Below, piece after piece: positions 16,893 to 21,738 of a stretch of 21,738 nt of DNA; the first letter of the stretch is position 1; every line of letters begins with the position of its first letter. Origin of the DNA: a virus (Duplodnaviria; Heunggongvirae; Uroviricota; Caudoviricetes); IMG/VR virus record IMGVR_UViG_2537561977_000011; one strand, 5' to 3'. Both the position numbers and the translations under genes were made by a program. The notes beneath the pieces were generated by a model that saw only the letters and a list, made by a program, of their open reading frames with translations, was not told where the DNA came from and searched no databases.

Positions 16893-17389
16893 GGGATTTC
16901 CCCGCGGGCCAGTGCGTTCTTGACGTCGCTGATCCGCGCCTCGTCGTTAGACGGGAACGTCACCAGACTGACTTCCCAGAGGTCGATTTCTTTCAGCAGA
17001 AAGGCTTCTTTGCTCCGGTCGTATTCCCAGTCTTTCAGGACGTACCCAATAGAAAGGCCGGTTAACGAACCGGCCTTCATGTGTGCATGTGCACGTTTTG
17101 CGAGGGGATCATCATCAATAAGCAACCGTCCCCTGACGTAAAGCCCGACATCGTCTTCCTTCATTTCGGTGTAAACACCGATGGGTTCATCCATGCGGTG
17201 CTGCCAGAGCAGCGCAGGTAACGCTTTTCTGTCACTCCACGCCCGCAGGGAAGCAGCAAATGCCCCGGACATCACCACATCATCGTGGCTGTCCTTTACA
17301 CCAAAGACGGAGCCATACCCTTCAAACTCACCGGAGTCACTGACAGATTTCAGACTCAGCGGTACATCAAGACGTTGTTTCGTCTGCAT
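16889..17389 (-). CDS. HK97-family prohead protease, C-terminally truncated by the IS10-like insertion
   Basis: Lies between portal and capsid genes; ends ...ARGEIP then a stop inside the IS end. Probable start ATG 17389 (AAGGA upstream); the ORF-track start at 17425 has no ribosome-binding site. Confidence 0.8.
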   Translation of the reverse strand: MQTKQRLDVPLSLKSVSDSGEFEGYGSVFGVKDSHDDVVMSGAFAASLRAWSDRKALPALLWQHRMDEPIGVYTEMKEDDVGLYVRGRLLIDDDPLAKRAHAHMKAGSLTGLSIGYVLKDWEYDRSKEAFLLKEIDLWEVSLVTFPSNDEARISDVKNALARGEIP

Positions 17390-18801: not shown

Positions 18802-20559
18802 TTAAAGCGAGCGAATACCAACGCTGACCAGATGCTCAGACAGATCCGGCTCCGGTTCACCGCCATTGACCAGCATCCGGCTCATTGCTGTAAACATCGC
18901 AACAGGGCCGTCGATTTTGGCTTCCGGCGTGGATTTGTTCGGGAAGATATTGTCGTTTTTGTCCGGTTTCACCGTAACGTTAGACATCATCCAGTTCATG
19001 ACCGGGTGATTACTGTGATGGAAACGCCCGGCATAGACCAGTGATTCCGTTTCCTTCATGGCCTCTGACAGATTGCGGACCGTCTGCGGAACTTCCACCA
19101 GCGGTATACCTTCTTCAGCCAGCGCCAGACTGAACTGCATTGCGCTCCACGGGTCAAATCCCAGTTCCCTCAGGTTTTCACCGCCAATCCATTCCAGTAA
19201 GTCACTTTTTATCTGAGCATGATCGATAACATCACCATCCGTCAGAATCAGCTTATCCATCTCCGCCCACTTCCGGTAAAGTTCTGCCTGCTGCCGCGAG
19301 CATCGTTCCAGCCGTCCTTCCGGAAGCCAGAATTTAAAATCGGCATGAACATGCCCGTTATCCGTTCGCCAGAGTTTTGCCGCCGCACAGATATCAATCT
19401 TATGAGCAAGGTCAACGCCGACCCACATGGGATACGTTTTCAGCTCATGTCGTGGGGCAATGTATTCGCACTTCTCCCACTTAATCATGTCCATCCAGGC
19501 AGACTCTGCTGTTACCCACACATTCATGTGTTTGGTAAAAAAATTCACCCGCGCAGAGACCTGTTCTTTCGCTTTTTTCGCCAGGCGACGCAGATCATCC
19601 CAGCGTTTACAGATGCCCAGGCCGGGATTCGCTTTCTGCCAGACCGTTTCATCAAACGGATCATCTCCCTCATCGAGGGTGTAAATAATCGCAAAGTAGG
19701 AGTCGTCTTTTACCGCGCCCTCCACGTCGCTGTTATAGCCACGCAATACCTTGATGGCGTAATCACGCTGCTCGTAACAAATCCCTTCCTTGTTAAACCC
19801 TGCCGTGGTGATACCAAATAAAAGGGACTGCAGACGGGCACCGGTTGCCGTTTCCAGAACGTCCCACACGTCACGGGTTTTATGTGCATGCAGCTCATCA
19901 ATAATGGCGCAGTGGATGTTCAGACCATCCAGGTTGTTTGCATCTGAAGAAAGCGGTTCAAATTTTGATGCGCTCTGCTCCTGATAAATCGCCAGCTTGT
20001 TGAAATCAAACAACCGCCCGAGTGTCGACCGGGCTTTTCTGACCATATTTTTGGCGTCTTCAAACACGATTCTGGCCTGGTCACGCGTGGTTGCGGCTGA
20101 ATACACCTCAGCCCCGCCTTCACCATCTCGCCCCCGTCATATACAGACCGATACCTGATGACAGGGTTGATTTTGCGTTTTACGGGCGACTTCGTTGTAC
20201 GCTGTCCGGAAACGGCGCACCATCACCGGGCGTCCGCTGCCATCGCTGCGCATGACAACTTCCCCGGTCTCTTCATTCACCAGCGGAATGACAAAACCAA
20301 AAATATTAATGAGGATAAACACATGCCAGTCCATCAACTCAATGGGCTGACCTGCCAGCGCCCCTTTTACATGGGGCACAAATTTGTAGAAATTCAGGAT
20401 GTGCTGCGCACGGGGTTCACTGAAATAAATCCCCCGCTCTTCGCCGTACTTCAGATCATCAAGAAAACGCTGGCAGGCCAGACGGACAAATTCACCAGCG
20501 ACAATTTCTCCTGCAACAACACGTTCGGCGTAGCGGATCCCGTCAGCCACTTTTGCCAT
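18802..20559 (-). pseudogene. terminase large subunit, disrupted: P-loop region out of frame between two compensating homopolymer indels (A-run 20178..20181, G-run 20131..20135) with an in-frame TGA at 20137..20139
   Basis: ORFs 20137..20559 and 18802..20106 are in the same frame, separated only by TGA. The window frame reads ...EVARKTQNQPCHQVSVCI*RGRDGEGGAEVYSAATTRDQ, whereas the alternative frame across the 47-nt interval reads KNAKSTLSSGIGLYMTG, a Walker-A segment. Confidence 0.85.
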
Positions 20560-21041
20560 CAGTCTCTCGCTTTTAAAAGTTCTGCCAGCAGATCAACATC
20601 ATCCGGTCCGGCGATATTTACTTTCGCCCGGCTTGCCGGTGACATACCAAATTCTGCAAGCATCGCCCGGATCCGCTTCCAGGCATCCGCTTTCATCGCA
20701 GCAGCCGGGTGTGCCTTAATCAGCACATCACCGTTCTGCGTTTCCGTGCGGTAGGTATAACCCTCAACATCGAGGGTTTCGCAGTGATGCCGGTATTCGG
20801 TGTAGGCTTCCACCAGCAACTCGAGTGCACGCGCATCAAGCTGAGAAATGATCCCTTCCGCATTCAGCTCTTCCGCCATTCGCCTGAACCAGTACTTTCC
20901 CTGCGCCCCTAAATGCTGCGGAATTTTAGGGAGACCTTTTTCGTCCTTTTTAGCGGTTTTTTTGGCGTCTTTAACGGGACGCTTTGAGGGATTGCCTCGT
21001 ATCAAATGCAGGCGTGGCGGGGTTTTCGGGGGTCCTGACAT
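20559..21041 (-). CDS. terminase small subunit, P27 family
   Basis: 160-aa ORF with GNPSKRP near the N-terminus and FGMSPASRAK near the C-terminus, typical of P27-family TerS; stop TGA overlaps the terL ATG (ATGA). Confidence 0.8.
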   Translation of the reverse strand: MSGPPKTPPRLHLIRGNPSKRPVKDAKKTAKKDEKGLPKIPQHLGAQGKYWFRRMAEELNAEGIISQLDARALELLVEAYTEYRHHCETLDVEGYTYRTETQNGDVLIKAHPAAAMKADAWKRIRAMLAEFGMSPASRAKVNIAGPDDVDLLAELLKARD

Positions 21042-21188: not shown

Positions 21189-21539
21189 TCACCTGATTCG
21201 TTCGCGCGCTGTTTTCGCTTTATGGCAGGGCCAGCACAGACTCTGCAGGTTGCTGTCTGCGTCTGTTCCGCCATGCGCTTTCGGGATGATGTGGTCGACG
21301 GTTTTCGCCTCGCTCACCACACCGACACGCAGACACAACTGACACAGACCTTTATCGCGCTTCAGAATACGGGCACGAATCACCGTCCATTTTGAGCCAT
21401 AGCCACGCTGGTGGCGGCTCAGTCCGCGCTGGTGCTGCACCCAGCCTTCACCGCGATGCTTATCGCAGTAACCCGAACTGTCTGTGGTTGTACCTGCACA
21501 TCCACGCTTACGGCAGGCACGTGGGATTAGTGATGGCAT
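21189..21539 (-). CDS. HNH endonuclease (packaging-associated)
   Basis: 116-aa ORF; GAGG 7 nt upstream of ATG 21539; N-terminal Cys4 cluster (CRKRGC...CDKH) and C-terminal HNH motif DHIIPKAHGG...N...LCWPCH; directly upstream of terS. Confidence 0.85.
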   Translation of the reverse strand: MPSLIPRACRKRGCAGTTTDSSGYCDKHRGEGWVQHQRGLSRHQRGYGSKWTVIRARILKRDKGLCQLCLRVGVVSEAKTVDHIIPKAHGGTDADSNLQSLCWPCHKAKTARERIR

Positions 21540-21582
21540 AAATACCTCATACCCTGCGAAATGTTTACCACGATAAAAAGGC

Positions 21583-21738
21583 TACTTAATGCACTGAGTG
21601 CGGATATACTCCTGTGCCCCTTCCAGTTGCATCTGCATCGTCATCAGCCGCTCTCTGAGGGTGAAATAATCCCGTTCAGCGGTGTCTGCCAGTCGGGGGC
21701 TGGTTGCGATTATCCACGCCGGAGGCGGTGGTGGCTTC
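21583..21738 (-). CDS. Rz-like i-spanin, C-terminal part (5' end beyond window), with Rz1-like proline-rich coding overlapping in another frame
   Basis: Open frame to TAG 21585..21583 reads ...SPRLADTAERDYFTLRERLMTMQMQLEGAQEYIRTQCIK*, matching the lambda Rz C-terminus as recalled; the same frame upstream reads KPPPPPAWI (Rz1 hallmark) while a different frame reads EATTASGVDN (Rz-like), implying a frame switch near the C5 run around 21695. Edge coordinates may be off by 1. Confidence 0.55.

Follow-up and report, generated by a model that had tools for sequence, protein, structure and literature searches.

A surplus base that exchanges the Rz and Rz1 spanin frames at the end of a draft Escherichia coli prophage contig is most likely an artefact

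The stretch of DNA analysed here (the window, 21,738 nt) is the whole of draft contig ADUP01000036.1 from E. coli LT-68 (GCA_000188815.2), and it ends inside a lambda-type pair of nested spanin genes, Rz and Rz1, whose reading frames are exchanged by one surplus C on the coding strand. The extra base most likely arose by an error of assembly or base calling in a known Rz/Rz1 gene that is ordinary in all other respects, a reading to which we give a probability of roughly four in five, since no other public sequence has this base and its site is 31 nt away from the end of a draft contig that is prone to error. Gene identity, the site of the extra base, its uniqueness and the preponderance of indels among private differences are shown here; its artefactual origin is an inference. 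LT-68 itself would then most likely carry an intact Rz of 154 aa and an intact Rz1 of 60 aa, as do relatives of this prophage that are 99.8% identical. The positions of all features discussed are listed in Table 1.

At the 21,738 end of the window every gene is encoded on the minus strand, where positions 21738-21582 (157 nt) represent the 3' end of a lambda-type nested pair with Rz1 in the +1 frame of Rz. Translation of the reverse complement of 21540-21738 up to the first stop codon gives EATTASGVDNRNQPPTGRHR in the frame starting at 21738, KPPPPPAWIIATSPRLADTAERDYFTLRERLMTMQMQLEGAQEYIRTQCIK in the frame starting at 21737 and, ending at its stop, ...SQPAPDWQTPLNGIISPSESG in the frame starting at 21736. 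The first frame contains EATTASGVDN, which belongs to Rz; the second contains the Rz1 motif KPPPPPAWI fused with the Rz sequence ATSPRLADTAERDYF...QCIK; and the third contains QPAPDWQTPLNGIISPSESG, the end of Rz1. The sequence-only reading of this DNA had described Rz and Rz1 pieces scattered over mixed frames, and both translation and Pfam matches bear this out. The Rz profile PF03245 matches residues 11-49 of the second frame at its positions 87-125 of 126 (E = 6.4e-15, 55.9 bits for a cut-off of 25.4), the Rz of a full-length relative reaching E = 2.8e-52. The Rz1 profile PF06085 matches the third-frame piece QPAPDW...SESG at positions 22-40 of 41 with 32.2 bits (cut-off 27.9); KPPPPPAWI aligns with its positions 12-25 at 15.2 bits, a weak match below that cut-off, and the Rz1 of a full-length relative scores 71.1 bits. 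Together with the identity, bar one base, of the 157 nt to annotated Rz genes, these matches exclude a chance resemblance. Neither gene is continuous in the deposited window: both open reading frames are broken at 21708. The canonical +1 nesting is present on each side of that position, and it is uninterrupted in 20 of 20 related loci. We attribute the break to a probable sequence error.

Table 1. Positions of the spanin gene parts, neighbouring genes and one-base indels in the window
Feature	Position	Strand	Remarks
Segment 5' of the extra base	21709..21738	-	Rz residues 104-113 (EATTASGVDN); in the +1 frame, Rz1 residues 31-39 (KPPPPPAWI, penta-proline motif); contig ends inside gene
Extra C (coding strand; G on + strand)	21708	-	Splits Rz1 Met40 codon (AT-C-G), after Rz Asn113
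Rz (i-spanin) codons 114-154 and stop, ATSPRLADTAERDYF...QCIK	21582..21707	-	CC2 coiled coil and C-terminal end; in the window shares its frame with the upstream Rz1 segment
Rz1 (o-spanin) codons 41-60 and stop, QPAPDWQTPLNGIISPSESG	21644..21706	-	In the window, the extra base separates it from the 5' part of Rz1
HNH endonuclease (116 aa; PF01844, PF14279)	21189..21539	-	42 nt downstream of Rz stop; first gene of phiP27/HK97-type packaging module
Probable cos site, 10 nt, CGCCCGCCAA	21118..21127	-	Aligned with annotated phiP27 cos site CGCCCGCCCC, between HNH and terS
Terminase small subunit (P27 family, 160 aa)	20559..21041	-	
Terminase large subunit	18802..20559	-	Split in the window (140 aa + 434 aa) by -A at 20181 and +G at 20129
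Private indel, +C	21708		
Private indel, -A in A5 (giving A4)	20181		
Near-private indel, +G	20129		Absent from 10 of 11 relatives
Private indel, -A in A6	14721		
Private indel, -T in T7	10677		
Private indel, -C	10369		
Private indel, -T in T7	7972		
Near-private indel, -A in A8	4946		

The change itself is simple: where the relatives have GATAAT-GCAACC, the window has GATAAT-C-GCAACC. A one-nucleotide frame switch had been placed near a run of five C residues, and exactly one surplus nucleotide does swap the Rz and Rz1 frames relative to lambda and close relatives, but its site lies outside the run, 9 nt upstream of it in the coding sense. The run itself (21695-21699) has equal length in the window and in close relatives, which rules out an indel there. 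With the extra base set aside, the 157 nt match at 100% identity the intact gene for the 154-aa Rz WP_000092290.1, found in annotated prophages of FDAARGOS_944, RMDEC465 and SC516. The 30 terminal nucleotides (21709-21738) are identical in the Rz genes of FDAARGOS_944 and lambda, and the Rz alleles diverge directly after the inserted base.

Is the extra base found in any other sequence? We compared the site in related loci comprising L001-L003, nine of the ten loci found through an identical HNH protein (the tenth, L006, has an Rz allele too divergent to compare and was left out), four Rz-bearing relatives retrieved with a 166-aa protease (L023, L025, L027 and L028), lambda, and L040-L043. The extra C is absent from 20 of 20 related loci, including FDAARGOS_944, L027 and L028, each of which is 99.8% identical to the window. 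The related phages thus do not share the frame arrangement of the window and keep the canonical one. An 80-nt query centred on the site returned 9,843 matches in 4,423 complete E. coli genomes, none of them full-length and carrying the extra C; the top matches, at 98.8% over 79 nt, lack it. Exact-pattern scans of viral contigs and of metagenome contigs gave no match to the sequence with the extra base. In the genome_contigs collection, a 32-mer containing the base had no match and an 18-mer had nine hits, all due to chance and in unrelated taxa (for example Chloroflexia, Lachnospiraceae and Paracoccaceae), although a collection with one genome per species makes this a weak scan for the question. 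A variant common to a phage lineage is ruled out by the absence of the extra C from all relatives and from the pattern scans.

The position of the base within the assembly is also telling. Both edges of the window are contig ends rather than arbitrary cuts. In the FDAARGOS_944 chromosome, the 1 kb lying beyond the contig end, with the holin gene, the endolysin gene and the 5' part of Rz, occurs in 10 places, while the 639 nt just inside the end occur in one; the contig thus breaks off where repeated and unique sequence meet. Such an end would be the spot where a consensus drawn from few or mixed reads is least reliable, and a base-calling or consensus error in this low-quality end, broken at the repeat boundary, most probably produced the spurious C at 21708. 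A literature search on the ADUP accessions found nothing, LT-68 being mentioned just as a listed strain.

A comparison of the whole window with the FDAARGOS_944 prophage (99.8% identical), three full-length prophage relatives (95-96%) and shorter loci revealed an unusual spectrum of differences private to the window: at most one substitution (at 7758) for at least six one-base indels. The 4.8 kb nearest the spanin site contain three private indels and no private substitution. Leaving aside 21708, five of the seven further indels, private or near-private, are contractions of A or T runs. The near-private difference at 20129, where the window has GGGGGCG and a high-quality relative GGGGGGC, looks like one event represented in two ways in the two sequences. 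Several of these indels interrupt genes. The terminase large subunit gene is split by those at 20181 and 20129 into open reading frames of 140 aa (20137-20559) and 434 aa (18802-20106), and the major capsid gene into frames of 267 aa (14617-15420) and 141 aa (14195-14620). Of the others, two lie within the tail-tube gene, one lies close to the end of a baseplate gene and one shortly past the tape-measure gene. Both terL and the capsid gene are intact in relatives; TerL is whole, at 585 aa, in L027 and L028, and no other contig of the collection has a protein identical to the 140-aa TerL fragment (EFZ58392.1). The terL indels and the extra Rz base belong to one pattern of indel errors. An excess of one-base indels over substitutions, made up mainly of A/T homopolymer contractions, is the mark of an indel-prone sequencing chemistry and not of evolution, and the spectrum of private differences in the window points to sequencing error, probably from such a chemistry. 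The extra C, however, lies outside any homopolymer, unlike most of the other private indels, and this counts against an artefact.

The non-homopolymer context of the extra C would fit better with the other explanation that deserves weight, a real and recent frameshift private to LT-68, in which an already defective cryptic prophage has lost both spanins through ordinary pseudogenisation. We regard such an event as unlikely, if by no means far-fetched. The window's prophage is decaying: it carries a copy of ISEc60, and its FDAARGOS_944 counterpart has frameshifts in Q and terL and two copies of the element. Selection on lysis genes may be relaxed in a decaying prophage, so that a real frameshift would be unsurprising. 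A true Rz pseudogene does exist in another cryptic prophage, where a premature stop and a run of seven C residues, with a fused Rz1::Rz reading frame, are present in three independent assemblies. However, genuine decay is expected to bring far more substitutions than indels, given bacterial mutation spectra, and the window shows the reverse. The closeness of the base to a contig end at a repeat boundary also speaks against a real frameshift, as does its absence from all scanned sequences. Moreover, L027 and L028, in which the IS junction is the same as in the window, are intact both in the Rz region at 21708 and in TerL; they differ from the window by 6-8 SNPs, and are thus not the same strain. 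Whether the base is an artefact or a real frameshift, the outcome is unremarkable.

What would the genes encode if the base were real? We modelled the products by joining the tail of the window to upstream sequence taken from the 99.8%-identical relative. In this model Rz is truncated to 123 aa, ending …GVDN-RNQPPTGRHR, and loses the CC2 coiled coil and the C-terminal end, while Rz1 becomes an 81-aa chimera made of Rz1 residues 1-39, an Ile and Rz residues 114-154. Lambda mutants with a nonsense codon at any point in Rz as far as residue 152, or in Rz1 as far as W46, are unable to cause lysis (PMC5295617), so a real insertion would inactivate both spanin subunits, in line with the pseudogenisation just considered. 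The sequence-only reading had concluded that the spanins are fused and inactivated. Both would indeed be broken by a real base, but as a statement about the organism this conclusion is probably wrong, the base being unique, near a contig end and in a sequence whose private differences are almost all one-base indels.

One could also imagine that the arrangement is functional, through a programmed +1/-1 ribosomal frameshift or as a selected Rz1::Rz fusion acting as a single-chain spanin or a dominant-negative blocker of lysis. The 81 codons do remain open when modelled on the relative's upstream sequence, the chimera retains the lipobox, Cys20, Cys29, the P5 motif and the Rz CC2 coiled coil, and fused Rz1::Rz reading frames recur in databases. 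However, when the chimera was used as a query against a collection of 5.8 billion proteins and nine of the fused proteins among the best 120 hits were compared at the junction, all nine had junctions other than AWI|IATSPRL, so that the fusion shows no conservation; the other fusions we followed up come from error-laden contigs or from a gene with a premature stop. The shifted arrangement was seen neither in the 20 related loci nor in the 4,423 complete E. coli genomes, and direct reading of the sequence at the shift, GATAATCGCAAC, shows no slippery heptamer. The tail of the chimera, ...LEGAQEYIRTQCIK (...EYIRTQCIK), is hydrophilic and forms no C-terminal transmembrane segment, and the truncated Rz is without the region required to bind Rz1 (PMC5295617). 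With neither conservation, nor a slippery site, nor such a segment, a programmed frameshift or a fusion resembling unimolecular spanins is ruled out, and a functional reading in general is essentially excluded. It is equally far-fetched that the C is real and the 81-aa chimera expressed in LT-68 as a dominant-negative or decoy spanin hindering lysis by co-resident or superinfecting lambdoid phages; if this were true, Rz1 would contribute to the decoy its outer-membrane lipid anchor and its penta-proline fusion motif, and Rz its distal coiled coil and C-terminus, joined to the Rz1 part.

The artefact reading thus leaves a conventional spanin pair in a conventional place. By analogy with lambda, Rz would be the inner-membrane i-spanin and Rz1, nested in its +1 frame, the outer-membrane lipoprotein o-spanin; their C-termini would join across the periplasm and, once holin and endolysin have acted, the complex would fuse the inner and outer membranes. 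A lambdoid lysis cassette had been proposed to lie directly upstream of the packaging genes, and this is what is seen in relatives, where holin, endolysin and Rz/Rz1 are followed by HNH, TerS and TerL. The gene order there is class II holin, lysozyme RrrD, Rz/Rz1 and HNH, the genes before Rz falling outside the window. In the window's own prophage, Rz/Rz1 would likewise close a holin-endolysin-spanin cassette just upstream of the HNH, TerS and TerL genes of a phiP27-like prophage. In phiP27, the HNH gene and the spacer leading to the cos site are 97% identical to the window, whereas another lysis cassette is found upstream, with two holins, an annotated endolysin and no annotated Rz. Since similarity to phiP27 extends from the HNH start codon as far as the putative cos site, the junction between Rz/Rz1 and HNH looks like a mosaic joint, and the cos site like another.

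Other features of this prophage lineage deserve mention. The window's copy of ISEc60, an IS4-like element, lies at about 15596-16893 between the prohead-protease and capsid genes, with a transposase reading frame of 413 aa (15619-16860, minus strand). The two copies of the same element in FDAARGOS_944, where Q and terL are frameshifted, occupy other sites, in the portal and tail-sheath genes, which indicates independent IS activity within one prophage lineage. At 7340-7375, at the N-terminus of a 'DNA circularization protein' gene, there is a perfect 9-nt tandem repeat, AGAAGGTAA (+ strand), in four copies, two more than in FDAARGOS_944 (18 nt, in frame); this region varies in length in other relatives too. 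An ipaH-type T3SS effector gene with a frameshift (ipaHe, 28012-28374) flanks the FDAARGOS_944 prophage (L004), and four tRNA genes (Ile, Lys, Thr and Gly) are present upstream of its holin gene. This suggests an EIEC/Shigella-like background for the lineage.

Fused Rz1::Rz reading frames are not rare in public protein collections. Many of the fused proteins of about 80 aa come from ENA contigs of about 3.5 kb. Three of the loci we compared are of this kind (L040-L042, 'tig' contigs of ERZ22171710): they are copies of the lambda right end (holin, R, Rz and bor), 97-99% identical to it, with numerous gaps, and apparently represent uncorrected long-read sequence of a lambda fragment. Our guess is that this fragment was a sequencing spike-in or control. 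Contigs of this type add artefactual fusion proteins to protein databases, and provide a precedent for the artefact that we propose at the end of the window.

The biological weight of the present case is small, and its value is that of a quality-control lesson on draft contigs. A frame anomaly that lies some tens of bases or less from the end of a draft contig should be presumed to be an artefact or, at most, routine prophage decay, and not a new gene arrangement, and this caution is strongest where the private differences of an assembly are mostly one-base indels. Nested genes call for particular care, as single-base errors in them yield plausible-looking fusion proteins, visible in public databases as Rz1::Rz reading frames.

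By its sequence, its nesting and its inferred genomic position, the window locus is a member of the lambda Rz/Rz1 family of embedded two-component spanins. Among the traits that define this family, the deposited sequence departs from continuity of the reading frames alone, at the suspected artefact. Nested Rz/Rz1 spanins are a textbook system and the Rz allele is common in E. coli prophages; nothing about the locus itself is new. Lambda (NC_001416; Rz at 45966-46427, Rz1 at 46186-46368) shares both architecture and sequence with the window: nucleotide alignment shows the same nesting over 157 nt that are gapless save for the one surplus base, with no difference in the first 30 nt, and the motifs EATTASGVDN, KPPPPPAWI, SPRLADTAERDYFTLRERL and DWQTPLNGIISPSE are common to both. 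The lambda pair also occupies the same position after holin and endolysin as the spanin pair in the window's relatives. The window differs from lambda in the C inserted behind Rz codon 113 (Rz1 codon 39), with the exchange of frames that it causes; in roughly the last 25 residues, …MTMQMQLEGAQEYIRTQCIK in the window allele and …ITMQKQLEGTQKYINEQCR in lambda; and in what follows downstream, bor and the lambda right end in one case, HNH and a P27-type terminase module in the other.

Unimolecular spanins of the T1 gp11 type combine an N-terminal lipoprotein signal and a C-terminal transmembrane anchor in a single chain (PMC5295617), while the modelled 81-aa chimera has no hydrophobic C-terminal segment. 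A closer parallel is the pseudogene of the P0016 cryptic prophage, in which, as in the window, a one-nucleotide indel in the Rz/Rz1 overlap creates an Rz1::Rz reading frame of about 81 aa. There, however, the indel changes a run of six C residues to seven, accompanies Y26* and occurs in three independent assemblies, while the insertion of the window is elsewhere and was seen once. In the P0016 loci (L043-L045), where the lysis genes are closely followed by a TrkH-family gene, the Rz stop results from a TAC to TAA change and the 81-aa fused frame is annotated as 'lysis protein'. The rzpR gene of the K-12 Rac prophage is presumably another spanin pseudogene of a cryptic lambdoid prophage.

The closest counterparts are the intact genes encoding WP_000092290.1 and its nested 60-aa Rz1 in FDAARGOS_944, RMDEC465 and many other E. 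coli prophages, with 100% nucleotide identity bar one base; in FDAARGOS_944 the identity of the prophage to the window extends over about 20 kb at 99.8%. In the latter relative, Rz starts with MSRVTAIISALVICIIVCLSWAV and Rz1 with MRKLKMKLCALMLPLVVVGC|TSK, parts that in the window's own prophage fall beyond the contig end. Without the extra C, these relatives encode a continuous Rz of 154 aa with an N-terminal transmembrane segment and a 60-aa Rz1 with the lipobox LVVVGC.
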